From Terriglobia bacterium (GTDB taxonomy: Bacteria; Acidobacteriota; Terriglobia; Terriglobales; Acidobacteriaceae): a stretch of 24,000 nucleotides of DNA. Positions 4,763-22,856 of this stretch are shown piece after piece; positions within the stretch are counted from its first letter, which is position 1; each line of letters opens with the position of its first letter. The notes beneath the pieces were generated by a model that made no database searches, was not told the origin of the DNA, and saw nothing but the letters and a program-made list of their open reading frames with translations. The stretch lies in assembly GCA_032252755.1 (NCBI GenBank), contig JAVUPY010000094.1, positions 65,181 through 89,180 on the forward strand. The letters run 5' to 3'. Position numbers and translations under genes: made by a program.

Positions 4763-5275
4763 CTATTTCTTCTTGCCGCGAGCTTTGATTGGTCGCCGCG
4801 CCACAGTCTTTCGCGCGCTCTTCCTGGCTGTTTTGCGAGCTGGCGTCTTCGTCACGCGTCGCGCCGGTTTCGTGGATGCCGTTCGCGCAGTTGCTCTCGC
4901 CGGCTTCTTCTTCCCGAACACCTCGGCCGACTCAAGCTTTTTCGCCGACTTCCACAGCCGCTCCAGATCGTAAAACTTTCGCGCGCTCTCGTTGAAAATG
5001 TGAACAACAAAATCCACGTAGTCGAGCAGGATCCAATCGCCGCGATCATAACCCTCACGATGGTTTGGCTCGAAGCCGGCTTTGGACAAGCGTTCATCCA
5101 CCTCGTCGGCAATGGCCTGCACCTGTCGTGGGTTCGCTCCGCTGCACACCACGAAGAAATCGGTGAAAGCGCTGGACTCCTTCGGCAGTTCCAGCACGCT
5201 GATGTTTTCCGCTTTCTTCGCCTCGGCCGCTGCCAGCACCAACGCGACTTGCTCTCTGATCTCGTTCTTCTTCAT
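4763..5275 (-). CDS. rsfS: ribosomal silencing factor RsfS with ~50-aa Lys/Arg/Ala/Thr-rich C-terminal tail
   Basis: The core [23 protein letters not shown]...[28 protein letters not shown] is typical RsfS/iojap. I chose the ATG at 5275 (MKKNEIRE), which has AAGGA upstream. Tail: [49 protein letters not shown]. Confidence 0.9.
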
Positions 5276-5355
5276 CCGGTTCGTTCCTTGATCTTCAGGT
5301 TCTTCCCAATGTGCTTCGTGCCCCATATCTGCCGTTCTCAGCAGATGTGGGTCGC

Positions 5356-6144
5356 CTACTCCCGCCTTTTTCCACCCACGATCTGCAGTCCCGCGCGATG
5401 CTTCTTTGCCTCGCGCTCCTGCCTCGCCTTCTCTCTGTCGGAAACATCTGGCAGCGTCTCCGCGCCTTTCTTGTACAGCCCTTCCTTGCGAATGTACTCG
5501 GCGACGGCATCTCCAACCATCGACTCCAGTTTCTTTCCCGATTCCGCCGCCGCGCGAATCTTCGTCGCGGAAACCGGCTCGCTTACATCGTCCAACAGAT
5601 GGATCGTCGTTTCCGGCAGCACCATCGATCCATGAGCGTTCGCCGAACGAAATATTCTCGTGACCTCATCCCGCGGACGCATCGAGTCCGGCAGCGCCTT
5701 CGCAACATCCGCCAGCGAATACCCAGGGCGGCTCGCCACGATGAACTCGCATTCGTGTAGCAACTCTACCGGGCTACGCCACTTGGCAATGTCGAGAAAG
5801 GCGTCGATTCCAATCAGGAAAAACAATTGGTCGCTCTTCTTTAGCGTCTGCTTAAATCGCTTCACTGTGTCGATCGAGTAGCTCGCCAGCTTGCCCTCCG
5901 CCTGGATGACCTCGGGCGCCTCCAGCAGCGACGGGATAAATCTCTTCTCTCCCGCTACCGCCAGCGCAATCATCGCCAGTCGGTGATAGTAGGGCGTGAC
6001 CGCCGTCTTGGCCTTGAGCGGCTGAATATCGGCAGGCACGAAATAAATCTTGCCGAGCTTGAATCGCTCGGCAGCCGCGCGCGCCACCGCAAGATGTCCA
6101 CGATGAATCGGGTCGAAGGTGCCGCCAAATAAAGCCAGGTTCAT
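5356..6144 (-). CDS. nadD: nicotinate-nucleotide adenylyltransferase NadD with ~55-aa charged C-terminal extension
   Basis: N-terminus [14 protein letters not shown] (the HxGH nucleotidyltransferase motif). SATKIR near the end of the core. Lies in the conserved obg-nadD-rsfS neighbourhood. Confidence 0.9.
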
Positions 6145-6193
6145 TCAGTTCTCAATCCCGGTTCTCAGTTTGCTCTACATCGAAGTGCGAGGT

Positions 6194-7480
<1,287 letters not shown>

Positions 7481-7990: not shown

Positions 7991-8488
7991 CTACTTCTTC
8001 TTGCTCGAACCCTTCTTCGCTGCAGCCTTCTTTGTGGGAGCCTTCTTCGCAGCAGTCTTCTTGGCAGCCGTCTTCTTCTTCGGCGCAGCCTGCTTAGTCT
8101 CGTGCTCTGCCTTGGGTTCAGCCTCTTCCGCCTTCTTGGCCTTCACCTTCTTTTCCGGCAACGCCGGAGCGTCAAAGGTCTGTCCGTCGAACGCAATCTG
8201 CGAGATGCGGACCTCGGCGAATCCCTGCCGATGCCCCTGCAGCTTCTTGTACTGCTTCTTGCGTTTGAACTTGAAGACCAGGATCTTGTCGGCGCGACCT
8301 TCGCCAATCACCTGTCCAACCACGCGCGCGTCCGACGGATTCGAAATCTGACCGTCGCCGCCGCTCACGGCCAGCACGTCAAAGCTGACGTCGCCACTTG
8401 CAATATGCGATTCCGAGCGCTCCACACGGACGACGTCTCCGGGGCTCACGCGATACTGTTTCCCACCGGCGCGGATGACCGCGTACAT
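7991..8488 (-). CDS. rplU: 50S ribosomal protein L21 with ~60-aa Lys/Ala-rich C-terminal extension
   Basis: MYAVIRAGGKQYRVSPGDVVRVE is the canonical L21 start. ATG at 8488 with GGAGG 7 nt upstream. Tail: KKVKAKKAEEAEPKAEHETKQAAPKKKTAAKKTAAKKAPTKKAAAKKGSSKKK. Confidence 0.95.
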   Translation of the reverse strand: MYAVIRAGGKQYRVSPGDVVRVERSESHIASGDVSFDVLAVSGGDGQISNPSDARVVGQVIGEGRADKILVFKFKRKKQYKKLQGHRQGFAEVRISQIAFDGQTFDAPALPEKKVKAKKAEEAEPKAEHETKQAAPKKKTAAKKTAAKKAPTKKAAAKKGSSKKK

Positions 8489-8964
8489 AGCAATGCCTCC
8501 AAACCTTCGCTCCCCAGACATACTACGGGCGAGGAGCCCTAAAGGAATTCAATCTGTGCGCTTGCACTTCCCCGGAAAACGGAACACACATTCACGCTGG
8601 GACCGACGGTCACCACAGGGGTTCCCTAGACGGGACGTAGCAGTACAGGCAAACCATTGAATTTTACGGGAAAAGTGGCAGGAAGGTCAAACCGCAGTCG
8701 ATCAACGCCTGAATTGACCGAGCAGCACCGATAGCGCGAACCCGACGAGCATGACCCCGGCGACGCGGAGTATCGCGGTCATGATTTTGGTGTTCAGAGT
8801 CGCATTTCCGGAGTCGGCGGTGGATTGATGTTCGCATGTCGTTCACGGAGGCCCGTGGTCCAAGCGTTGTATCGAACTGAGAGGGGCCGAGCCCAAATGA
8901 CGAGCACCAACCCCATCGCAGTACGGCTAGCGCGATGTCCAGTCTCAGTACCAAATCACCTCCT

Positions 8965-13398: not shown

Positions 13399-13894
13399 AC
13401 GATTCGAGAACACGCGTTCGAATCTTTCCAACCCTCATCTATTCTTGTCTGGCCTCTTCAGGCACATTGGGAATTGAGAACTGATGGGGCCGTTGTCTTT
13501 GTCCAATCCCTGCCCAATCCCGGGACTGTCTTGAGCGGGCGCTCCGCAATCCAGTTGCAAGCGACATATCGCGCCTCGAAGCGGATTCGTGACTTGCGTC
13601 ACGGCAACAACCCCAACTTCGCTGCAAACTTTCCAACATCAGGGGAGCGTTTCCAATTGTTGCCAGCCAGGTTCAAGGATCGGGAGCGAAATTACGGTGA
13701 GGCCGACAATGAAACAGCAACATTCAGTAAGAGCATTGCCAACTCACAAGCTTCTGATGACTTACATGTGAGTGAAATCGCTTCGCAAGAACGGTGCCGC
13801 CGTAGAAGCCATTCCTCAGCGAGGCCACAGCAATCTCCGGCAGAGAGCGTGCCTAATTCCGTCACCACGCCAGTATTGATTTGGAGGACACGAT

Positions 13895-14302
13895 ATGCCG
13901 CAGCGATGCGAAGACGCTTTTAGCAGTATCGAGGGTGCGCAGGAGTTTCTTGCACTGTTAGCGGAAGCAATTGCAGAAACCAGGCGCGATGTCGATGCGG
14001 ACATTCAGGATCATGGAACCAACGGTTCAAGAAGAATCGATGTCCTGAAGATCGCTTCGTATGACCTGGAAGCTTTGGAACATCATATCTACCGCAGTAA
14101 GAGGCTCTTGAATGACCTCCGTATGGTCCGACGATTGCTCATGCAGGAACGGGGAGTCGCCGGTACTGAACTGCCTGACCCACCAGCCCCGATTCCGCTG
14201 GTTCGTATGGAACTGCCCATTCCACGGCCGCACGTGTTGGAGAAACGCCGAGCCCGACCGAGCGTGGGCGGACGAGAAAAGTCAGTTGCAGTTGCCAGTT
14301 AA
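13895..14302 (+). CDS. hypothetical helical protein (135 aa)
   Basis: ATG preceded by GGAGGA 7 nt upstream. The N-terminal half is predicted helical and the C-terminus is Pro/Arg-rich. No family recognised. Confidence 0.5.
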   Translation: MPQRCEDAFSSIEGAQEFLALLAEAIAETRRDVDADIQDHGTNGSRRIDVLKIASYDLEALEHHIYRSKRLLNDLRMVRRLLMQERGVAGTELPDPPAPIPLVRMELPIPRPHVLEKRRARPSVGGREKSVAVAS

Positions 14303-15075
14303 GTGTTTTGCTGAGCTTTGGCGAGACGATCGCCTATCACCCCATATACGGACGCGTTGAACGCAAGACCGATATGTGTACCGGGGACCTCGACATCGAT
14401 CTTGGGATCGCCGGTCACACAGCACTTCCAGTCCACCACCCCGTCATCCCGCGTATAGATCGCTGTCTGGCGCACCGACTTTGACAGGCGCGTGCGCAGT
14501 GAGCACACGAAATCGCACGTACACCTTGACGTGTAGCAGTCGGGAAGAACCGCCGTTCCATACTCTTCCAGGATTTGGCTCCGCACAAATCCGGCAGCGC
14601 GCAGGATCGAATGGTGGGCGACAGTGCCCCTGAAAGGAGAGGCAATGGTTGTCACAGAAGCTATGTCGCGGGGCCGTTGGCGAGCGACCGAACGCGCCAT
14701 GATGCCTCCCAGGCTGTGCCCCACAAGGTGAACCTTGCCGTGGGTTTCCTTCAAAGCCTTGTCGATCGTTGCCCACAGCTTGTACTTGATCAACAGGTTG
14801 GGGCACTCGGCATTCAGCCCGATCCCCGATAGATAGGACCTGTAACCAATGCGTGTGAGCCAGCCGTTCAGGTGCTGGAGGTATTCGTCAGTTCCCAAAA
14901 ACCCTGGTATGACGACGACCCCCGAGCCGTCACCCCGTGGAACTCCAAACCCGTAATAGGTCGGGGAGGCATGGAGCAGAAGGAGTTCAGCTCCAAAAAA
15001 AGCTTCTTTCCAGATGGAAATATTCGCAGGACCCGACTCCCGGATACTGACAGTCTGCGTTCGACTATGGGCCAT
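14299..15075 (-). CDS. alpha/beta-fold hydrolase (lipase/esterase-like), paralogue 1
   Basis: Nucleophile elbow GHSLGG, oxyanion-type VVVIPGFLG, candidate Asp in YTRDDGVVDW and His in PGTHIGLAFN. About 45-50% identical by eye to the 16797-17579 product. Confidence 0.85.
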   Translation of the reverse strand: MAHSRTQTVSIRESGPANISIWKEAFFGAELLLLHASPTYYGFGVPRGDGSGVVVIPGFLGTDEYLQHLNGWLTRIGYRSYLSGIGLNAECPNLLIKYKLWATIDKALKETHGKVHLVGHSLGGIMARSVARQRPRDIASVTTIASPFRGTVAHHSILRAAGFVRSQILEEYGTAVLPDCYTSRCTCDFVCSLRTRLSKSVRQTAIYTRDDGVVDWKCCVTGDPKIDVEVPGTHIGLAFNASVYGVIGDRLAKAQQNT

Positions 15076-15174
15076 AGATTATTGGCTACCAACTAGCTGT
15101 TGGATGAGATAACCCCTATTCCAGTTGTCGCAAAGTGTTGGAATGCTGCCATAGCGGCTCCTGTTTCCGCAACC

Positions 15175-15206
15175 AAGAAAAATGCCGCGGACTTAACATC
15201 CGCGGC
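15175..15206 (-). terminator. Rho-independent terminator after the phasin-like gene
   Basis: Minus strand reads GCCGCGGA-UGUUAAG-UCCGCGGC followed by AUUUUUCUU. It starts 28 nt after the stop codon. Confidence 0.65.
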
Positions 15207-15233
15207 GGGGTCATGATTGTCTGGGCGCCATCA

Positions 15234-16154
15234 TCAGGCGGTCGCGGCCATTGACCTTGCTCGGCGTGGTTTTCGCCGGCCCACCTTCGCGCGATGAACT
15301 TCGACGACCTTCCCTCGGGGTTGCTTTGCTTTCATCATCGAATCGATAAGTGCCTTCTCGGCGTCGACGAAGCTCTTTACGCCTTCGCCTGTAAGCTTTG
15401 CGATCGGCAGGCGCATCGGTATAGCAACCTCAGTCGCATTCTTTGCTACTTTGAGGTTCGTCTTCATCTGCTGCGCGGCAACGTCGAGCAGCTTCTTTTG
15501 CGCCTCAACCAGCGTGTTTACAGATTCGCGTGCCAAGGTGCTGATTTCTGTCCTGGCAGCCGGTTTCATCGTGCGCTCACCCTTGCTTGATGCCTTCGTG
15601 GTTTCTTCTGAGATGACGTCGAGCAGCTTCTTCTGTGTGCGGACAAAGTTCTCCATGCCTTCGCGAGCCAACTCAATCAAACGACCACCGTCGTAACGTT
15701 TTCCGTTCTTGGCATCATTCAGGAATCCCTGCGTCTGCTTGCTGGCGATCGTAAGGAACTCCTGCTGCATGGTCACGAAGTTTTCGGTGCTGCGACGGAC
15801 CACGTCCACCATGGCAACGGCCGCGCGTGAATTATGGACCCGCTCCCTGACGCCGTTCATGAACAGTTCGTTCTCTTTATCGGCGAGGTCGAGCAGGACT
15901 CTCTGCGCCTCGACGAAGTTTGCCGTCCCTTCCACTGCAAGCTCATTCAATATTGCGTTCGGCGAGTGCTCCGGATGAGATATGCTCTCGCGCATTGCCT
16001 TCATCGTGCTGGCGTTCTGCCGCATTGCTACATCGATCAGGATCCGCTGGGTTGCGAAGAAACTCTCCATCGCCTGCTGTACCCAGCCCGATAACAGAGA
16101 TACAAAAGACGAGGGTCGCGGCTCCACCCCTTCCCGTTTCACTTCCGCTTTCAT
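15234..16154 (-). CDS. phasin-like granule/lipid-body structural protein made of six ~45-aa amphipathic repeats, with basic C-terminal tail
   Basis: Strong RBS GAGGAGG 5 nt before the ATG. The six repeats have cores ESFFATQRILIDVA, ANFVEAQRVLLDLA, ENFVTMQQEFLTIA, ENFVRTQKKLLDVI, NTLVEAQKKLLDVA and KSFVDAEKALIDSM. Each resembles the phasin motif A-x-EG-x-E-x-hh-E-x-x-x-x-hh. The gene is divergent from phaR. Confidence 0.7.
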   Translation of the reverse strand: MKAEVKREGVEPRPSSFVSLLSGWVQQAMESFFATQRILIDVAMRQNASTMKAMRESISHPEHSPNAILNELAVEGTANFVEAQRVLLDLADKENELFMNGVRERVHNSRAAVAMVDVVRRSTENFVTMQQEFLTIASKQTQGFLNDAKNGKRYDGGRLIELAREGMENFVRTQKKLLDVISEETTKASSKGERTMKPAARTEISTLARESVNTLVEAQKKLLDVAAQQMKTNLKVAKNATEVAIPMRLPIAKLTGEGVKSFVDAEKALIDSMMKAKQPRGKVVEVHRAKVGRRKPRRARSMAATA

Positions 16155-16172
16155 AAAAGCCTCCTCACTCTA

Positions 16173-16187
16173 TGCTGCACCGCAGCA
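16173..16187. promoter_or_regulatory. candidate PhaR operator: perfect palindrome TGCTGC-acc-GCAGCA
   Basis: 15-bp perfect inverted repeat containing CTGC-N3-GCAG. It lies between the predicted -10 and the RBS of the phasin-like gene. Confidence 0.6.
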
Positions 16188-16196
16188 ATCAAGAAA

Positions 16197-16226
16197 AGCA
16201 TAGGCTTGATCAGAGTGATATGTCAA
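16197..16226 (-). promoter_or_regulatory. sigma70-type promoter of the phasin-like gene (TTGACA-N18-TATGCT)
   Basis: On the minus strand, TTGACA is at 16226-16221 and TATGCT at 16202-16197, with an 18-nt spacer. Confidence 0.5.
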
Positions 16227-16236
16227 CATAGGTAAG

Positions 16237-16253
16237 CGCAATATTGCGTCGCA
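16237..16253. promoter_or_regulatory. second candidate PhaR site in front of phaR: CGCAAT/ATTGCG palindrome overlapping TGC-gtc-GCA
   Basis: The 12-bp perfect palindrome CGCAATATTGCG (16237-16248) overlaps TGCgtcGCA (16245-16253). It sits just downstream of a weak TTGATC-N17-TAGGTA promoter candidate (16206-16234) and 20 nt before the phaR ATG. Confidence 0.4.
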
Positions 16254-16273
16254 GCATCCGGGGAGAATCGGGA

Positions 16274-16807
16274 ATGTCAGCTCCACATATCATCAAGAAA
16301 TACGAAAACCGCCGGCTTTATGACACGTCGCGAAGTCGCTACGTGAACTTGGAGGAAATCGCCACCCTCATTCGCAAGGGCTACGAGGTCCGTGTGGTGG
16401 ACGCAAAAACCGGGGAAGACCTGACCCGTCCTACCCTGATGCAGATCATTGTCGAGGACAACAAAGAGGGATCGGCCGGACTCCCACTGGAACTGATGCG
16501 CCAGCTGATCGTCGCATCCGATCAGGTTGGACGGGATTTCCTGTCGTGGTATCTCAAGTCGGCCTTTGACGCCTACGGAAAAGTACAGCAGTCGTTCCGT
16601 AGCGGCCTCTCTGATCTGCAGGCGGCGGCGACATCCCCTATCGACTCCATCCGCCAGTTGCTCCGTATGCCGCAGGACGCAAAAGACGACAAAGGTGAAG
16701 TTTCTGAACTGAAGAAGAGGCTGGAGGAATTAGAGGCCCGCCTCCAAAAGCGAGCGCGACCTCGGTCAACCGGCGAGCGCACGAAGAAACGTAAAGCTAA
16801 GCGATAG
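16274..16807 (+). CDS. phaR: PhaR-family repressor (polyhydroxyalkanoate synthesis regulator type)
   Basis: IIKKYENRRLYDTSRSRYVNLEEIATLIRKGYEVRVVDAKTGEDLTRPTLMQIIVE closely matches the hallmark PhaR N-domain (IKKYPNRRLYDT..S.Y.TL.D...L......F.V.DAK.G.DLTR..LLQII.E). ATG at 16274 with GGGGAG upstream. Confidence 0.9.
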   Translation: MSAPHIIKKYENRRLYDTSRSRYVNLEEIATLIRKGYEVRVVDAKTGEDLTRPTLMQIIVEDNKEGSAGLPLELMRQLIVASDQVGRDFLSWYLKSAFDAYGKVQQSFRSGLSDLQAAATSPIDSIRQLLRMPQDAKDDKGEVSELKKRLEELEARLQKRARPRSTGERTKKRKAKR

Positions 16808-17579
16808 CGCTCCTTTCGCGTCGTCCAGTAGAAGCGCTGGCGAGTCGTTCTGCGATAACACGGTAAACCGCCGGGTTGAACGCCAAGCCGCTGTGGGTTC
16901 CGGAAACCTCGACATCCACGCTTGGGTCTCCGGTTCTGCAACTCGTCCATTCCACCAGGCCGTCATCTCGAGTGTAGACAGCAGTCAGCGGTAGTTTCGA
17001 TGGAAATGGCTGACGCAATGACTTCATGAATGCGCAGGGGCATTCCGCGGTGAGGCATTGTGGCCTCACACGCTCGGCCCGGTTGGCAATCAGGTACTTC
17101 CGGACAACTTCCGCGCTCTGAAAAATCCTTTTGCGAACGACTGTTTGCCGGACGGGAGATCCCAGCGTGATAACCGAAGCTATATCGTTTCGCTGCGTTG
17201 CGATCGAACGCGCGATCGCCCCGCCAAGACTGTGCCCGATCAGGTGGACTTTTCGCCCAGTCACTCTGGCAGCATCGGTAATGACCGGTTCCACGATCTC
17301 TGAAATCAGGAGATTGGGGCAGCTCGCATTGAAGCCGATTCCGGAATACGTCGGAGAATATCCCAACCGCTTCAGCCATGCATACATCACGATCAGGTAC
17401 GTATCGCCGTGTAGAAATCCGGGTATCAGGACAACTGCCGATCCGTCTCCTGGCGGCACCCCTGCTCCGTAATACACGGGTGAACCCAGCAACAGCACCA
17501 GTTCTACCGCATACAGCGATTCATGCCACTCCGGGTTGAGGGCTTCGCCGCGGTAACTATTCTCCTTCTTTTGCGACAT
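16797..17579 (-). CDS. alpha/beta-fold hydrolase (lipase/esterase-like), paralogue 2, last gene of the HMGR-WS/DGAT operon
   Basis: GHSLGG, VVLIPGFLHG, YTRDDGLVEW and SGTHSGLAFN. It starts 9 nt after the WS/DGAT stop. Its 3' end overlaps the phaR 3' end by 11 nt. Confidence 0.85.
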   Translation of the reverse strand: MSQKKENSYRGEALNPEWHESLYAVELVLLLGSPVYYGAGVPPGDGSAVVLIPGFLHGDTYLIVMYAWLKRLGYSPTYSGIGFNASCPNLLISEIVEPVITDAARVTGRKVHLIGHSLGGAIARSIATQRNDIASVITLGSPVRQTVVRKRIFQSAEVVRKYLIANRAERVRPQCLTAECPCAFMKSLRQPFPSKLPLTAVYTRDDGLVEWTSCRTGDPSVDVEVSGTHSGLAFNPAVYRVIAERLASASTGRRERSAIA

Positions 17580-17588
17580 AGTAATCTC

Positions 17589-19166
17589 TTATGCCGCTGT
17601 TGACGTCACTCCCGCGGCTGCAGCTCTTGCCATCGGCTTTGGCTTCGAGCCAATCCGATCGGTCTGCGCTTCGAGCGGAGTGGCCGCGACACGCCGAGAC
17701 TTTGTGTTGCGTGAGCGCTGCCTGCGGACTCCTGCTGCGCGGAGCAACTCCGCGACGCTCTCATCAACGAACTTCGGCAGCTTTTCCAGGTCCGGTGCGG
17801 CCTTTGCATCCCCGGTAAATCCGAAGTACACCATTCCGTTATACGAAAGCACTGCGCAGTTGATGCCCATCTCCCCGCCGATGGGAACATAGGGATAAGC
17901 CTTGAGCATTTCATGTCCGAGCAGATAAAGCGGCTGTCTCGGTCCGGGCACATTGGTACAAATCGTATTGCAGACACTGATGGGTAGCTCACTGATGATG
18001 GGCGCGAGCATAGCCTGCAGGACGGTCGGAATCGTACCGAGGAGCGTACCGGCAAACGACACGAACTCAGCTATGCGCGCTGTCTTTACGAATTCCATCC
18101 GCTGATGAATGGCGCTGAGCAGTTTCTTGGGAGTACGAATTCCCAGTGGAGCGGAAAATGGCGCGAATGTAATGTGATTTCCTAATCCGTCCGACTGATG
18201 TCTGCGCGTGCTCATCGGCACGACGATACGAATAGAGCGGCCGCGTGGATTCACCCCATGCAATTCGCTGTAACGCCGGAATGCCGCGGTGAGGACAGTG
18301 AGGATGGCATCGTTGACCGAGGCGCCGCACTTGCTGCGCAAAGCCTTTAAATATTCCAAACGAGTCTCGGTCCATTCGAAGCGCTGGGGCCCACGGCAGA
18401 GTACGTTGAAGGGCAACCGCTGAGGCACTTCCGCCAATTCGGCCGCAACGCGCACGATCTGGTCTTGCCCGGGCTTGCGTAAGTTGTTCGCAGCCTCAGC
18501 TTCGGCGGCGCCATTCTCTGAGATCCCCATGGCGCGCTGGAACATCGTGAGTACTCCGCTCCCGGCCTGCAGCAACCGCTCCAACGTCGAGAACCAGGAC
18601 TGGATTGCGGAATTGACCGTATCCGTCCCATTGCCGTTAACGGCAGGGCGGGGCACACGAACTTTAGGGCGCGTAAAAACCGGTGCCGTTGGAGATGTAT
18701 CCATCAAAACGTTGATCAGTCCCATGCCTGAAATGCCATCAGCCAGGCAGTGGTGTACACGTGCGATCATTGCCGTGCGGTTACCCTTAAGGCCGCGGAT
18801 CAGGGTCAGGTCCCATAACGGATGCTTTCGGTCCATATTGGGGCTGAGCACATTCGCCGTAACGTCTTTGAGTTCCGCAACCGTCCCACGCCTCAGCCGA
18901 ATCTCGTGGATGTGCCGCTCCAACCGGAAGTCAGTCGCAAACTCCCAATATGGCATGCCTACGTTCAGCGGCGGGACAACCACTCGTTGCATGTAGCGAG
19001 GGATCTGGCTGAGCTTCGAGGCGACCAGGTTGCGAAGATACGCGGCGGAGATTTCGCCGTCGAAAACTGCCAGCGAGGCAATATTAAGGGGAGCACCGTT
19101 GCGTTCGAGATAAAGAAACAGCGAGTCGCCAAACGATAAATATTCGCACTCGTGAGTCATGGGCAT
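17589..19166 (-). CDS. wax ester synthase / acyl-CoA:diacylglycerol acyltransferase (WS/DGAT family)
   Basis: Catalytic HHxxxDG motif present as ARVHHCLADGISG. The ~520-aa length and the N-terminal PLNIASLAVFDG plus C-terminal NxxxTNVPGP (ICTNVPGPRQPLYL) are typical of the family. The start may be 19166 or 19160. Confidence 0.9.
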   Translation of the reverse strand: MPMTHECEYLSFGDSLFLYLERNGAPLNIASLAVFDGEISAAYLRNLVASKLSQIPRYMQRVVVPPLNVGMPYWEFATDFRLERHIHEIRLRRGTVAELKDVTANVLSPNMDRKHPLWDLTLIRGLKGNRTAMIARVHHCLADGISGMGLINVLMDTSPTAPVFTRPKVRVPRPAVNGNGTDTVNSAIQSWFSTLERLLQAGSGVLTMFQRAMGISENGAAEAEAANNLRKPGQDQIVRVAAELAEVPQRLPFNVLCRGPQRFEWTETRLEYLKALRSKCGASVNDAILTVLTAAFRRYSELHGVNPRGRSIRIVVPMSTRRHQSDGLGNHITFAPFSAPLGIRTPKKLLSAIHQRMEFVKTARIAEFVSFAGTLLGTIPTVLQAMLAPIISELPISVCNTICTNVPGPRQPLYLLGHEMLKAYPYVPIGGEMGINCAVLSYNGMVYFGFTGDAKAAPDLEKLPKFVDESVAELLRAAGVRRQRSRNTKSRRVAATPLEAQTDRIGSKPKPMARAAAAGVTSTAA

Positions 19167-19174
19167 GTACCCTC

Positions 19175-20368
19175 TTACCTTCGGTTGCGCCCGAGTCGTT
19201 CGTGGGAGGAAACCCAGTCACCGTGAAGGATGGCAGCGACCAGCGAAATCTCGCCGGCGAGCACGACCGCGGCACAGATTTCCGCAAATTTGTTTACCTT
19301 GCCGTCACCGTAGCAACCCATCATCTCCAAACACTGTCTCTGGGTCGCCAATCCCGTGCCGCCGCCGAATGTGCCGACGATCAGCGAGGGAAGCGTAATA
19401 GACCAGTAAAAATCACCGTTTTCGAGAGCCTGCGTATACGTGAGCGATGAGTGTGATTCCGCTATGTTGGCGACGTCCTGGCCGGTCGCAATGAAAAGCG
19501 CAGCCAGTCCGTTTGCGGCGTGCGCACCAGTGCTGGATGATCCGGCTAAAAAAGCGCCCGAGATCTGAACCTCGCGAATCTTGCAGATCTCTTCGGTCTC
19601 GATGTGGAGGTACCGCCTGAGCAACTGTCCAGGAATAACGGCTTCCGCTACCACTCGTTTGCCACGCGTAAGCAGCATATTCAAATGCGAGTGCTTTTTG
19701 TCGGTGTCTATGTTTCCGCTGAGATAGTAAGAGGTGCGGAATGGACAGTTATCGCGAATCCATTCACAGGCCGCCTGCGTCGCCTTGCCTGTCATATTCT
19801 GACCAGCCGCATCTCCAGTCGTGTAATTGAAGCGCAGGTAGCGTACAGGCCCAACCGCGAACTGCTCGATCCTGATCAGTTTCCCGACTCGAGTCGTCGC
19901 TTCTGCCTCACGCTTGATATGCTCATAGTGCTCTTCGACCCATCGCCCGAAAGATCTTGCCAGGCGCGCGTTTCCAAGCAGGAAGGCGGGCGCGCGCTGC
20001 ATCGCATCATCCACTACAGTCGTTCGGACACCCCCGGACTCGCTGAGCACCCGCATGCCGCGGTTGTAGCTTGAGACCACCGTGCCCTCGGTGGTCGCCA
20101 GGGGGATGAAGAACTCGCCTTCGGCATACTCACCGTGAATTTGAAGTGGCCCGGCTACTCCTATCGGCACTTGTGCTACACCAATGAAGTTTTCGATATT
20201 TCCAGGGAGAATTGCGGGATCGAAAGAGTAGTGCGCGAGGTGAGTGAGATCGACGCCAGTGCTTTCCAGGATGAATCCACGTCGCATCGCGGCCATTTCA
20301 TGTGTGTAATCGTTGACCCGGGAGCGCGGAATAGTGATCCTCGGTTCGTCTTGGAGATCGGTGGCCAT
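19175..20368 (-). CDS. HMG-CoA reductase homologue (class I-type catalytic domain, soluble, ~397 aa)
   Basis: NIENFIGVAQVPIGVAGPL, PLATTEGTVVSS, TGDAAGQNM (cf. DAMGxNM), GTFGGGT (cf. GTVGGGT), and a C-terminal SSHE catalytic-His region. I chose the ATG at 20368 (MATDLQ), which has GGAGGG 9 nt upstream. The stop lies 8 nt before the WS/DGAT start. Confidence 0.85.
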   Translation of the reverse strand: MATDLQDEPRITIPRSRVNDYTHEMAAMRRGFILESTGVDLTHLAHYSFDPAILPGNIENFIGVAQVPIGVAGPLQIHGEYAEGEFFIPLATTEGTVVSSYNRGMRVLSESGGVRTTVVDDAMQRAPAFLLGNARLARSFGRWVEEHYEHIKREAEATTRVGKLIRIEQFAVGPVRYLRFNYTTGDAAGQNMTGKATQAACEWIRDNCPFRTSYYLSGNIDTDKKHSHLNMLLTRGKRVVAEAVIPGQLLRRYLHIETEEICKIREVQISGAFLAGSSSTGAHAANGLAALFIATGQDVANIAESHSSLTYTQALENGDFYWSITLPSLIVGTFGGGTGLATQRQCLEMMGCYGDGKVNKFAEICAAVVLAGEISLVAAILHGDWVSSHERLGRNRR

Positions 20369-20513
20369 TGGGGAACCCTCCGAAGATGTGGTTCGCAACA
20401 AATCCATCGGCCCAGAGCAGCCTGTGGAGTCGCATGCGGGCACACAAGCTCCAAGAGCAGGGCCTGCCGAGAACAGAAGACAATCCGGTAAAAGCGTAGT
20501 ACGTTTCACACGA

Positions 20514-20523
20514 TGCGAAGCAG
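20514..20523. promoter_or_regulatory. TGC-gaa-GCAG box (PhaR half-consensus) in the divergent region between the HMGR operon and the 138-aa gene
   Basis: aTGCgaaGCAGat. It is nested in local inverted repeats GCAGAT-N11-ATCTGC and CGTGA-N6-TCACG (minus-strand reading). Confidence 0.25.
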
Positions 20524-20570
20524 ATTTATTTGCGTGATCTGCGTCACGTTTCGCATTTTGGCGCGAGGCC

Positions 20571-20987
20571 ATGATGAAAAAACTTACACAGGTCGAACAG
20601 GCGCGTGCACTGATGGCCGAAGCTCTTGACTGGTCCGTCATGAGGTGGTTGAGCGAGAAGAAGCGAGTCCGGAAAGCCGCCGACCAAGCAAATGACTTGT
20701 TGAATGATGCCGAAGCGGAGATTCGCAAAAAGTGGAGTCCGGAATTCAGATCCATCTACGAAGAATCAGGATTCGCGTCTCCCGAAATGAAGCGCCTCGC
20801 CAGCAGAATTCGGCGCGAGCATGATGCCGCAACCCGGTTCAGAGTCGAGGCCGAAAAAACCTTCGATGCGGCAGAGAAGAGACTGAGCACGGCCATGGCC
20901 CGCGAAGGATGCCGGCAAGCCATCGAAGGGTGGGACCATCACCTCGAAGCCATTCGTCTGGCGGAAACCGCACTTGAAGCTGACTAG
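20571..20987 (+). CDS. hypothetical all-helical protein (138 aa)
   Basis: ATGATG start with GAGG just upstream. Charged, helix-prone sequence. Divergent from the HMGR operon. No family recognised. Confidence 0.5.
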   Translation: MMKKLTQVEQARALMAEALDWSVMRWLSEKKRVRKAADQANDLLNDAEAEIRKKWSPEFRSIYEESGFASPEMKRLASRIRREHDAATRFRVEAEKTFDAAEKRLSTAMAREGCRQAIEGWDHHLEAIRLAETALEAD

Positions 20988-20994
20988 CAGTTGA

Positions 20995-21711
20995 TCACGC
21001 TTGCGCAGGGTTGCGACTTGCGAGCAGTGTTTCTACTCTTTCCCACTGCTCCGTCGTATCCAGATCGCAGGATTCGTCTTGCGGAGATACGATTCCGGCC
21101 ATCTTCTCCCCATACAACGAATTCGTCGTAAGCAATACCTGCGTGCTTACGACAAACACATTGCCATCGCGATGGAACGCTGTTGGAAGAAGTTGACGAG
21201 AGGTGATCGGCTCTCTTTCTCCGGTACTGATCTTCAGGAAATTCTGTTCATTCGGGAAATAGACCCAGTGCGGGTTGAACTCTGTGGGTACCGGGCGCAC
21301 GGAGACGACACTGTCCGCGCCGGAGTCCCAGAGGGCCGCGACGCAACGACGAATTGTTTCCGCACTCCTCAGTGGGCTGGTCGGCTGCAGCAGGCATATG
21401 GCTTCGAACTCACGCCGCTCAGCTGCGAGCGTAATAACCGCATGCCGAACGACGTCGAGCATCGGCGTTTCGTCGCGAGCGAGTTCAACGGGGCGCATGA
21501 AGGGGACTTCCAGGCCGCACTTTCCGCCAATTTCAGCAATCTCCGAATCATCGGTACTGAGCACGAGACTCGTGAGGCACCCAGCCTCGCGAGCCGCTCT
21601 GGCGGTGTACTCGAGCAAGTACAGGGAACCGAGTTTGCGAGCATTCTTCCGCGGAATTCCCTTGGAACCACCGCGTGCGGGGACCAGCCCCAGTACTCGT
21701 CTGGATACCAT
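20995..21711 (-). CDS. neuA: acylneuraminate cytidylyltransferase (CMP-sialic/nonulosonic acid synthetase)
   Basis: N-terminal LVPARGGSKGIPRKN motif, then LLQPTSPLR. Length ~238 aa. Adjacent to neuB and neuC. Confidence 0.85.
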   Translation of the reverse strand: MVSRRVLGLVPARGGSKGIPRKNARKLGSLYLLEYTARAAREAGCLTSLVLSTDDSEIAEIGGKCGLEVPFMRPVELARDETPMLDVVRHAVITLAAERREFEAICLLQPTSPLRSAETIRRCVAALWDSGADSVVSVRPVPTEFNPHWVYFPNEQNFLKISTGEREPITSRQLLPTAFHRDGNVFVVSTQVLLTTNSLYGEKMAGIVSPQDESCDLDTTEQWERVETLLASRNPAQA

Positions 21712-21803
21712 TCAGGGAGAAGCTAACATATTCCCTATCCCTTGCAACAGATTCGCCGAAGTTCTGTGGTATACAAAGCGTGGGAAGTTACTCAAGACAC
21801 ACC

Positions 21804-22856
21804 ATGATCAGCATACTTGGGCGAAAAATTGGGCCTACAGAACGCCCCTTTGTCATCGCGGAAATCGGTATCAATCACGAAGGCAGCGTCACAAAGGCCG
21901 AACAGACGGTTGACGCTGCTGCGCGGGCCGGATGCGAGTGTGTGAAGTTCCAGGCGCACGTGATCGAAGACGAAATGATCCCGAACGAAGTGATTCCGGG
22001 CAATGCAAAGGAGAGCATTTGGGAGATCATGAGGCGTTGCGCCCTCACGGAAGACGAGGACGCGAGATTGAAGAAGCGCGCCGAAGATGCGGGCATGATC
22101 TACCTCTCAACCCCGTTCTCCCGGGCCGCCGCCGACAGGCTGGAAAGATTGGGAGTCGCGGCTTACAAGATCGGCTCTGGCGAATGCAACAATTATCCCT
22201 TGATTAAGCACATCGCCGCGTTTGGGAAGCCGGTCATCCTCAGTACGGGCATGAATGACCTTGGCTCAATTGACCCGGCGGTGGCGCTCCTCCGGCAATA
22301 CTCCATACCGTTTGCGCTCTTGCACTGTACCTCGATGTATCCGACGCCTTATAAGAAGATGCGGCTGGGAGCTTTGCACGATCTGAAGGAGAGATTTCCG
22401 GACGCGGTGCTGGGACTAAGCGATCACTCATTAGGTAATTACACTTGCTACGCAGCGGTTGCACTAGGGGCTTCCATCGTTGAGAAACATTTCACTGCCG
22501 ACAAGAAGTGGCCTGGGCCCGACGTGCCGATTTCGATCGACGAAGAAGAACTTCGAGAATTAGTAGAAGGAACGGCGGCAGTTCATGCTGCACTCGGTGG
22601 CAAGAAGACGATCCTGCCAGAAGAGCAGCCGACCATCGATTTCGCCTATGCATGCGTTGTCACTCTAAGGGATATTGCTGCAGGAGAGGTCCTCTCGCCG
22701 GACAACATCTGGGTGAAGCGTCCCGGAACCGGGGAGATCAAGGCGAGAGACTATCAGTCGTTACTGGGAGTGCGAGTGAAGTCTTCGGTAAAAAAGAACA
22801 GCCAATTAAAGTGGAGCGATCTGGAATGCGGAGCTTCGGCAAAAGCCGAAAGATAA
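21804..22856 (+). CDS. neuB: N-acetylneuraminate (nonulosonate) synthase with C-terminal SAF domain
   Basis: PFVIAEIGINHEGS, VKFQ, YKIGSGECNNYPLI, LLHCTSMYPTP and LSDHSLG. ATG at 21804 (MISILGRKIG). The upstream part of the tracked ORF is rejected. Confidence 0.9.
   Translation: MISILGRKIGPTERPFVIAEIGINHEGSVTKAEQTVDAAARAGCECVKFQAHVIEDEMIPNEVIPGNAKESIWEIMRRCALTEDEDARLKKRAEDAGMIYLSTPFSRAAADRLERLGVAAYKIGSGECNNYPLIKHIAAFGKPVILSTGMNDLGSIDPAVALLRQYSIPFALLHCTSMYPTPYKKMRLGALHDLKERFPDAVLGLSDHSLGNYTCYAAVALGASIVEKHFTADKKWPGPDVPISIDEEELRELVEGTAAVHAALGGKKTILPEEQPTIDFAYACVVTLRDIAAGEVLSPDNIWVKRPGTGEIKARDYQSLLGVRVKSSVKKNSQLKWSDLECGASAKAER

Follow-up and report, generated by a model that had tools for sequence, protein, structure and literature searches.

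A predicted PhaR/phasin-type circuit linked to wax ester/triacylglycerol synthase genes in Terriglobia

The closest described relatives of the arrangement considered here are the PhaR-PhaP systems of polyhydroxybutyrate (PHB) producers (Cupriavidus necator, Paracoccus denitrificans, Rhodobacter sphaeroides, and Sinorhizobium meliloti AniA), in which the experimentally defined binding sequence of the regulator PhaR is CTGC-N3-GCAG (PMC12542648; PMC3206438, citing Chou and Yang 2010). [quoted passage not shown] The window resembles the PhaR-PhaP systems in having the same operator; in the overlap of that operator with the promoter of a gene for an abundant-looking, non-enzymatic, amphipathic helical protein; in having a box also upstream of phaR, which would imply autoregulation; in the divergent arrangement of phaR and the coat gene; and in the scope of the predicted regulon (the coat gene and phaR itself). 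It differs from those systems in that phaA, phaB, and phaC are absent nearby, the partners being WS/DGAT, lipases, and beta-oxidation genes. The N-terminal DNA-binding domain of the regulator belongs to the same family as that of PhaR from PHB producers, but the window protein is without a PHB_acc match and is under the TIGR01848 cutoff; and, unlike PhaP-type phasins, the coat candidate, which has six repeats and 306 aa, does not reach the thresholds of Phasin_2 and TIGR01841.

Three further cases bear on the comparison. Ralstonia eutropha PhaP1 was reportedly targeted to triacylglycerol (TAG) inclusions in Rhodococcus and Mycobacterium, in work by Hanisch et al. in 2006, so that phasin-type amphipathic proteins would be able to coat TAG bodies; that case is one of heterologous expression, whereas in the window a phasin-like gene is natively linked to WS/DGAT. 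A phasin or 'PHA system' gene beside WS/DGAT has been mentioned in passing on scaffolds of marine Pseudomonadota and read as polyhydroxyalkanoate (PHA) metabolism (PMC10351704), a case that shares with the window a phasin-type gene next to a WS/DGAT homologue, but that comes from a different phylum and is without PhaR, operator, or conservation analysis. Finally, the MLDS/MLDSR pair of Rhodococcus jostii RHA1 consists of a major lipid-droplet coat protein and a regulator of its gene that is sequestered by droplets (PMC5504291), and appears to share the logic that we propose for the window, namely, a coat gene controlled by a droplet-sequestered regulator. MLDS and MLDSR belong to an actinobacterial host and to one operon, whereas the window genes are divergent; the window regulator has a PhaR-type DNA-binding domain and operator, and the window proteins are likened to MLDS and MLDSR by function and assumed not to be homologous to them. 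Because MLDS/MLDSR is known in Rhodococcus, the concept of a coat protein plus a sequestered regulator is not unprecedented, and, because of the same analogy, the proposed logic is biologically realistic (PMC5504291). In our searches of the literature, we met no account of a circuit of the PhaR/phasin type tied to WS/DGAT; an earlier reading of the window from its letters alone (the 'sequence-only reading') had held that such a circuit was undescribed, which agrees with these searches for the circuit, but not for the concept.

Here we establish the gene identities, the conserved synteny, and the operator, promoter, and terminator architecture of the Terriglobia locus. We consider it rather likely that the cluster is a Terriglobia-specific island for neutral-lipid storage and mobilization with a PhaR/phasin-type feedback circuit at its core, PhaR-phasin logic having apparently been retargeted to neutral lipid.

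The predicted PhaR operator and its target genes

The exact sequence CTGC-N3-GCAG occurs once in the window, at 16175-16185, where it separates the -10 hexamer of the repeat-protein gene from its Shine-Dalgarno sequence. For comparison, we assembled by tblastn 81 non-redundant species-level loci (numbered L001 onward), with ~20 kb (+/-10 kb) examined per locus and with at least 9 kb present on each side in 50 ('full-flank' loci). In 77 of the 81 loci, a box occupies the matching position, with ~30 bp between it and the repeat-protein start and ~92 bp between it and the phaR start. Of 91 copies of the repeat-protein gene, 84 have CTGCN3GCAG on their 5' side, as does phaR in 62 of 74 loci, vs. 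a chance expectation of 2.7% for a box upstream of a gene; the core TGCN3GCA is found within 200 bp upstream of phaR in 74 of 74 loci, a stringency at which a single match is weak evidence. When 80 loci are aligned on the box, the elements follow one another as TTGACA, -10 hexamer, ATGCTGCAnTGCAGCA, GGAGG, ATG, with TTGACA at a fixed distance from the box. Since the operator overlaps the transcription start of a strongly signalled gene, the geometry is that of a classical repressor. Binding of PhaR to the box is predicted from these patterns.

Strict boxes are not enriched upstream of the genes for WS/DGAT (3/48 loci), HMGR (0/8), AdhE (0/16), or hydrolase (2/75), and no enrichment is seen upstream of the ABC1 and GMC genes that recur nearby (see below). 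The predicted regulon therefore consists of the coat gene and phaR, without lipid enzymes, and PhaR probably governs the coat gene and itself, and not lipid synthesis. Direct control of lipid synthesis by PhaR, a candidate that we considered, is dropped.

The cluster comprises several transcription units and is no single operon. The repeat-protein gene is monocistronic, because it has its own promoter, the sole promoter-like site found in 13800-21200 (sigma-70-like, 16226-16197), and a strong terminator directly after its stop codon; phaR is divergent from it and converges, with an 11-bp overlap, on the HMGR-WS/DGAT-hydrolase 2 unit. The six open reading frames (ORFs) that the sequence-only reading had listed are all present where it placed them, and their family assignments hold; the 'operon' that it drew through them does not. 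It had also overlooked a conserved seventh gene, orf138, on the far side of HMGR. The orf138 protein is 50% identical to the product of the gene at the same position in L001 (L001:5899-6333; E = 3e-45), belongs to a family of 138-144 aa, and has no match in Pfam or NCBIfam. Strict boxes lie upstream of this family in 6 of 32 loci, a modest enrichment over the 2.7% expected, and the protein may be a second PhaR-controlled inclusion protein.

Table 1. Features of the cluster in the window (coordinates of the 24-kb stretch)
Feature	Position	Strand	Description
Lipase-like alpha/beta hydrolase 1	14299-15075	-	258 aa; GHSLGG, Ser/Asp/His triad, N-terminal hydrophobic/amphipathic helix
Intrinsic terminator of repeat-protein gene	15184-15206	-	9-bp stem with 7 G-C pairs, then T-run; directly 3' of stop codon
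Repeat protein ('rep')	15234-16154	-	306 aa; six amphipathic helical repeats of ~45 aa, K/R-rich C-terminal tail; candidate inclusion coat
Predicted PhaR operator	16173-16187	.	Palindrome TGCTGCA-C-CGCAGCA; core CTGCACCGCAG at 16175-16185
Sigma-70-like promoter of repeat-protein gene	16197-16226	-	TTGACA, 18 nt, TATGCT; 10/12 matches
Near-consensus second box TTGCGTCGCAG	16244-16254	.	One mismatch; TGC-N3-GCA core intact; 20 bp 5' of phaR start
PhaR-like regulator	16274-16807	+	177 aa; N-terminal PhaR DNA-binding domain
Lipase-like hydrolase 2	16797-17579	-	260 aa; paralogue of hydrolase 1; last gene of HMGR-WS/DGAT unit
WS/DGAT acyltransferase	17589-19166	-	525 aa; HHCLADG intact
Class I HMG-CoA reductase (HMGR) homologue	19175-20368	-	397 aa; variable accessory gene
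Near-consensus box ATGCGAAGCAG	20513-20523	.	One mismatch; in HMGR/orf138 divergent intergenic region; weak as an individual site
orf138 ('u144' family)	20571-20987	+	Conserved 138-aa helical protein, divergent from HMGR; seventh cluster gene

The regulator and the repeat protein

The PhaR-like protein matches PHB_acc_N (PF07879) over the entire profile (positions 1-61 of 61; E = 7.7e-29), and its residues 3-105 are 37% identical to R. eutropha PhaR. It narrowly misses the equivalog cutoff of TIGR01848 (105.4 vs. 109.45 bits) and gives no match to PHB_acc (PF05233) at E <= 0.01, and the PhaR homologues of L001-L004 likewise list PF07879 alone. The C-terminal half is divergent and unrelated to R. 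eutropha PhaR, with a coiled-coil-like stretch and a K/R-rich tail. The protein had been called an unmistakable PhaR, a description that fits the full DNA-binding domain, but not the missed cutoff and the missing PHB_acc match.

The repeat protein consists of six ~45-aa repeats with the motif E-G-x-x-x-F-V-x-A-Q-K-x-L-L-D, and its helical hydrophobic moment is 0.339, vs. 0.235 +/- 0.022 in shuffled sequences (~4.7 standard deviations higher). The earlier impression of a strongly expressed-looking, phasin-like protein is supported by the gene signals (consensus promoter, GGAGG Shine-Dalgarno sequence, operator, and terminator) and by the amphipathic helical character, but not by phasin homology, for which there are sub-threshold matches only. 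The protein passes no curated family threshold in Pfam or NCBIfam. With Phasin_2 (PF09361) it scores 13.6 bits vs. a gathering score of 24.9, and 22 of 30 family members match, all sub-threshold (best E = 1.3e-4); with TIGR01841, 9 of 30 members match (best E = 3e-5), the window protein being well under the cutoff. Phasin is thus the only recurrent family match, in two libraries and always sub-threshold, with ApoB100_C and PhaE (PHA_synth_III_E) as weaker sub-threshold matches. We refrain from calling the protein a phasin homologue, since the thresholds are failed and both a direct comparison with PhaP1 and a Protein Data Bank (PDB) profile search are negative.

The repeat-protein family comprises 1516 clusters at 90% identity and 493 at 50% identity, and its members with an organism named in the source are from Terriglobales. 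In GTDB species genomes, relatives turned up in 224 species; of the 80 best loci, nearly all are labelled as metagenome-assembled genomes of Terriglobia, Terriglobales, or Acidobacteriaceae. The family is Terriglobia-restricted. Of two oddly labelled contigs that carry the module, those of L052 (DATJAI010000024.1) and L068, one is assigned to Candidatus Binatia and the other to Candidatus Acidiferrales, which may reflect misbinning, taxonomy drift, or horizontal transfer.

K/R-rich tails end both the repeat protein (15234-15290) and the PhaR-like protein (16745-16807). The basic character of the tail is kept across the repeat-protein family and recalls the tails with which MLDS, TadA, and PhaM bind DNA or heparin. 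MLDS links lipid droplets to DNA (PMC5504291), and the tail of the repeat protein could plausibly do likewise.

Conserved neighbourhood and partner enzymes

Across the 81 loci, the repeat-protein gene keeps company with phaR, a lipase-like hydrolase gene, and genes of lipid metabolism (Table 2), so that the co-localization proposed from the window alone is borne out in relatives: the trio is conserved, and WS/DGAT joins it in 35 of the 50 full-flank loci, vs. ~1% expected (an estimate for 1-3 copies in a ~5-Mb genome). WS/DGAT lies on either side and on either strand of the repeat-protein gene; the linkage therefore survives rearrangement. Unbiased clustering of the neighbourhood ORFs recovers acyl-CoA synthetase, FadE-type acyl-CoA dehydrogenase, electron-transfer flavoprotein, patatin, hormone-sensitive-lipase-type (HSL-type) lipase, AdhE, HMGR, and ABC1 kinase, and recovers no PHA-specific family: no thiolase, PhaE, or PhaZ is among the recurrent neighbours, and a recurrent short-chain dehydrogenase/reductase (SDR) is far under the acetoacetyl-CoA reductase cutoff. 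Repeat proteins only 25-30% identical to that of the window adjoin a hydrolase in L085-L088 and L091, ABC1 in L085, acyl-CoA synthetase in L090, and phaR plus WS/DGAT in L089, on contigs of at most 3.3 kb, which limits the visible context.

Table 2. Neighbours of the repeat-protein gene in homologous loci
Neighbour	All loci	Full-flank loci	Remark
phaR	74/81	47/50	Adjacent to repeat-protein gene, usually divergent
Lipase-like hydrolase	70/81	46/50	Usually just downstream of repeat-protein gene
WS/DGAT	50/81	35/50	Within 10 kb
ABC1 kinase	35/81	25/50	
GMC oxidoreductase	31/81	24/50	
orf138 family	30/81	23/50	
Acyl-CoA synthetase	20/81	14/50	
Patatin-like lipase	18/81	15/50	Mostly in WS/DGAT-phaR region
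AdhE	17/81	14/50	
FadE-type acyl-CoA dehydrogenase	17/81	14/50	
HMGR	9/81	6/50	
HSL-type lipase	8/81	7/50	
Electron-transfer flavoprotein	8/81	6/50	
Any further lipid gene		46/50	

Two of the recurrent neighbours have features of their own. The GMC oxidoreductase (e.g., L023:7519-9330) is above the NCBIfam 'cholesterol oxidase' equivalog cutoff (890 vs. 850 bits). The ABC1/UbiB-type atypical kinase (e.g., L023:11860-13671) is sometimes fused or adjacent to an outer-membrane-protein beta-barrel domain protein; plant ABC1 kinases are lipid-droplet (plastoglobule) proteins.

The two window hydrolases are paralogues (53% identity), and both carry GHSLGG; with S121, D211, and H234 invariant in the family alignment, they are Ser-Asp-His enzymes with Ser, and not Cys, in the box, as had been proposed. 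Pfam matches of hydrolase 1 are weak (PGAP1, Abhydrolase_1, Lipase_3). Its nearest sequence relatives in the PDB are triacylglycerol lipases of Burkholderia, Pseudomonas, Proteus, and Bacillus (E = 8e-8 to 1e-4), with a Burkholderia cholesterol esterase also among them, and a fold search with the hydrolase model returns the same set. No PHB depolymerase is among the PDB sequence matches at E <= 1 or the top 50 fold matches. By sequence and by model, the hydrolases appear to resemble triacylglycerol lipases and not PHB depolymerases. Bacterial family I lipases (Burkholderia glumae/cepacia, Pseudomonas aeruginosa LipA, Proteus mirabilis, and Bacillus subtilis LipA), their best sequence and fold relatives, share with them the GHSxG nucleophile elbow and the Ser/Asp/His triad at ~20-30% identity over the aligned core. 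The window hydrolases differ from family I lipases in having no evident signal peptide, so that they are probably cytoplasmic, and in carrying a hydrophobic helix conserved at the N-terminus as well as a cluster of invariant Cys residues. C91, C180, C185, C187, and C219 (hydrolase 1 numbering) are invariant across 22 family members and include a C-x4-C-x-C cluster, which may be a metal site or disulfides and is unusual in a small cytoplasmic lipase. Hydrolase 1 is 100% identical to ROO76_23650, an NCBI protein from a metagenome-assembled genome of a Terriglobia bacterium. The slot between WS/DGAT and phaR holds, by lineage, a hydrolase paralogue (hydrolase 2 in the window, and likewise in L008, L032, and L038), a patatin-like phospholipase (e.g., L082:10983-12326), or nothing.

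These data bear on the possibility that the cluster is a conventional PHA system, in which the PhaR-like protein, the repeat protein as a divergent phasin, and the hydrolase as an intracellular PHA depolymerase with a Ser lipase box serve the granules of a synthase encoded elsewhere, and in which WS/DGAT and beta-oxidation genes lie close by because the region is devoted to carbon storage in general or because they supply PHA precursors derived from fatty acids. In favour of this reading, DNA-binding domain and operator are of the PhaR type, the repeat protein recurrently matches Phasin_2, TIGR01841, and PHA_synth_III_E below threshold, the experimentally studied PhaR proteins all sense PHB (PMC12542648), some Acidobacteria have class III PhaC (PMC8312272), and 15 of the 50 full-flank loci are without a nearby WS/DGAT. 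Set against this are the absence of phaC within 10 kb in all 81 loci; the absence of thiolase, PhaE, and PhaZ from the recurrent neighbours, together with the low score of the SDR; the solved relatives of the hydrolase, which are TAG lipases with no PHB depolymerase at the limits given above; and a PhaR-like protein that is without a PHB_acc match and below the equivalog cutoff. In the window itself, as the sequence-only reading had noted, PHA synthesis genes are missing: tblastn for PhaC is negative, and no PHA gene is present among the ORFs scanned (a 393-aa ORF beyond the island being outside the scan). We consider a conventional PHA system unlikely.

A second possibility is that the clustered genes have no common function, PhaR and the repeat protein being a general stress or nucleoid-associated pair, made up of a DNA-binding repressor and a K/R-tailed helical protein, that is unrelated to inclusions. 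Basic tails are present on both proteins, PhaR regulons are pleiotropic in rhizobia (PMC6201568, PMC12542648), and inclusions in these organisms are presumed. Yet the partners are strongly enriched for lipid metabolism, in 81 species and in the most divergent members; a hydrolase gene accompanies that of the repeat protein, almost always as its neighbour, in 70 of the 81 loci; and amphipathic repeats are typical of lipid-surface proteins. We regard a pair without a role at inclusions as very improbable.

The WS/DGAT protein matches WS_DGAT_cat (1e-43) and WS_DGAT_C (1.4e-23), is above the cutoff of TIGR02946 (327.6 vs. 309.95 bits), and has an intact HHxxxDG motif (HHCLADG), in agreement with its earlier assignment. 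The HMGR homologue, also assigned correctly, scores 417 bits with PF00368 and 357 bits with TIGR00533 (under the 441.8 cutoff), and its best solved relative is the archaeal HMGR 6hr7 (E = 1e-91). Aligned to 6hr7 and 8ecg, it keeps ATTEG, NRG, SGN..DKK, RGK, AHAAN, GQD, and the C-terminal ..SH.., motifs that we take, by comparison with the human enzyme, to supply the catalytic Glu, Lys, Asp, and His and the HMG-binding cis-loop. The candidate that this protein is a disguised fatty acyl-CoA reductase is weakened by the conservation of all catalytic and HMG-binding motifs, and survives within the ester-lipid alternative below. HMGR is an accessory gene, variably present and alternating with AdhE. 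In all nine loci carrying it (the window, L001, L015, L032, L038, L041, L050, L055, and L057), HMGR immediately precedes WS/DGAT in the same orientation. Its place is taken by AdhE, usually with a small STAS protein behind it, in further loci (including L003, L013, L018, L019, L023, L026, L039, L040, L046, L049, L051, L053, L064, L068, and L077), such that HMGR or AdhE adjoins WS/DGAT, nearly always co-oriented and directly upstream, in 25 of the 50 WS/DGAT loci. The two never occur in one locus (hypergeometric estimate, p ~0.015, phylogeny uncorrected). By its score, AdhE is a bona fide acetaldehyde-CoA/alcohol dehydrogenase. Reduction of an acyl-CoA thioester to a primary alcohol is established biochemistry for either class of enzyme.

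This alternation raises the possibility that the circuit coats inclusions of another ester lipid, in that WS/DGAT acylates an alcohol made by the variable upstream partner, with isoprenoid or alkyl esters, and not TAG, as the product: HMGR would provide an isoprenoid alcohol derived from mevalonate, or, should its specificity have shifted, a fatty alcohol, and AdhE would provide an alcohol of short or long chain. In keeping with such a scheme, either HMGR (9 loci) or AdhE, alone or with STAS (17 loci), but never both, adjoins WS/DGAT in half of the WS/DGAT loci, the reaction class is shared, the GMC oxidoreductase is above the 'cholesterol oxidase' cutoff in 31 loci, and cholesterol esterase is among the nearest structures of the hydrolase; the GMC oxidoreductase, the cholesterol-esterase likeness, and HMGR together hint at sterol or isoprenoid ester chemistry. 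The scheme is weakened by the retention in HMGR of all motifs that bind the HMG moiety, by which a change of substrate is not indicated; by the score of AdhE as a true acetaldehyde-CoA/alcohol dehydrogenase; by the half of WS/DGAT loci that have neither gene; by the absence of other mevalonate-pathway genes from the L001 gene calls and from the annotated recurrent neighbour families; and by the modest significance of the exclusivity. We think it quite unlikely that isoprenoid or alkyl esters replace TAG in this way.

The window holds no tRNA or Rfam match. The island is flanked on one side by an obg, nadD-like, and rsfS housekeeping trio (4763-7447, - strand) and on the other by a CMP-sugar cytidylyltransferase gene followed by the 393-aa ORF (20995-22856). 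A 135-aa ORF without a family match (13895-14302, + strand) overlaps the 3' end of the hydrolase 1 gene by 4 bp and is conserved in the vicinity of the cluster in 7 further loci. At 8015-8088, inside an ORF (7991-8521, - strand), near-repeats of CTTC..GCAG follow one another every 10-20 bp and are probably a repetitive coding segment.

Proposed mechanism and its implications

The presence of a PhaR/phasin-like pair among lipid genes suggests that the pair manages lipid droplets. According to the mechanism that we propose for a neutral-lipid island, the free PhaR-like repressor would bind TGCTGCA-N-TGCAGCA at the transcription start of the coat gene and repress it, and would also bind a second TGC-N3-GCA site before phaR, resulting in self-repression. 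Nascent hydrophobic inclusions, consisting of TAG and/or wax or other esters from the neighbouring WS/DGAT, would titrate PhaR onto their surface, the coat gene would be derepressed, and the repeat protein would cover the inclusions. The adjacent family-I-like lipases would mobilize the store, as would, in relatives, patatin and HSL-type lipases, acyl-CoA synthetase, FadE, and electron-transfer flavoprotein. We infer that these bacteria accumulate neutral lipid and that lipid bodies, and not PHA, are what PhaR and the repeat protein bind. More tentatively, and with somewhat less than even confidence, we propose that Terriglobia PhaR is a sensor of neutral-lipid droplets and not of PHA, that the six-repeat protein represents a new class of bacterial lipid-droplet coat, and that a PHA-type circuit has been re-used for WS/DGAT inclusions, with dedicated droplet lipases and with interchangeable HMGR and AdhE reductases feeding ester synthesis.

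Several points weigh against a neutral-lipid island. PhaR is otherwise known solely as a sensor of PHA granules, the studied proteins all sensing PHB (PMC12542648), neutral-lipid accumulation is experimentally unexplored in Acidobacteriota (PMC10351704), and a few Acidobacteria carry class III PhaC (PMC8312272); the literature on PHA in Acidobacteria gives sparse data, none specific to Terriglobia. The finding of no phaC by tblastn (0/81 loci, 0/50 full-flank loci, none in the window) applies to ~20-kb neighbourhoods, not whole genomes, and WS/DGAT is missing from the surrounding 10 kb in 15 of the 50 full-flank loci. Because boxes are not enriched before the enzyme genes, the regulatory link to lipid synthesis is one of proximity only. 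The loci are the best-scoring 80 of 224 species, such that the counts may lean to close relatives. The hydrolase model has a predicted local distance difference test (pLDDT) score of 56, because of which its fold matches serve as corroboration of the sequence matches. The AlphaFold2 model of the repeat protein, all-helical with six long helices, has a pLDDT of 45 (low confidence); hhalign of the family alignment against R. eutropha PhaP1 (which scores 104 bits with Phasin_2) gives a probability of 0.2; and a PDB profile search with the family alignment gives nothing meaningful. The repeat protein thus appears phasin-like in function and regulation, with homology unproven. The profile searches taken together confirm the PHB_acc_N and WS/DGAT domains, leave Phasin_2 sub-threshold and PHB_acc unmatched, and give weak hydrolase matches. 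What stands of the neutral-lipid inclusion system proposed by the sequence-only reading is the conserved trio with WS/DGAT and lipase genes, the TAG-lipase-like hydrolases, and the PhaR operator; what does not stand is the single operon, and HMGR is present in 9 of 81 loci.

Terriglobia are among the most abundant soil bacteria, and carbon storage in Terriglobia is poorly known. If the neutral-lipid reading is correct, the cluster would provide the first candidate coat protein, sensor, and dedicated lipases for the lipid droplets of a Gram-negative soil phylum, and the granule-titration mechanism of PhaR would not be polyester-specific. With a 15-bp operator that is conserved and a promoter that is strong, the hypothesis is open to direct testing, and the alternation of HMGR and AdhE beside WS/DGAT points to unexplored routes to ester lipids. 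PhaR and WS/DGAT serve in soil surveys as proxies for the storage of PHA and of TAG, respectively (bioRxiv 10.1101/2024.12.02.626346), and a soil study taking PhaR as a PHA marker found PhaR in 16% of Acidobacteria isolates. If PhaR serves WS/DGAT lipid bodies, these two proxies would be confounded in Acidobacteria, and PhaR would be an unreliable marker of PHA potential in such surveys.

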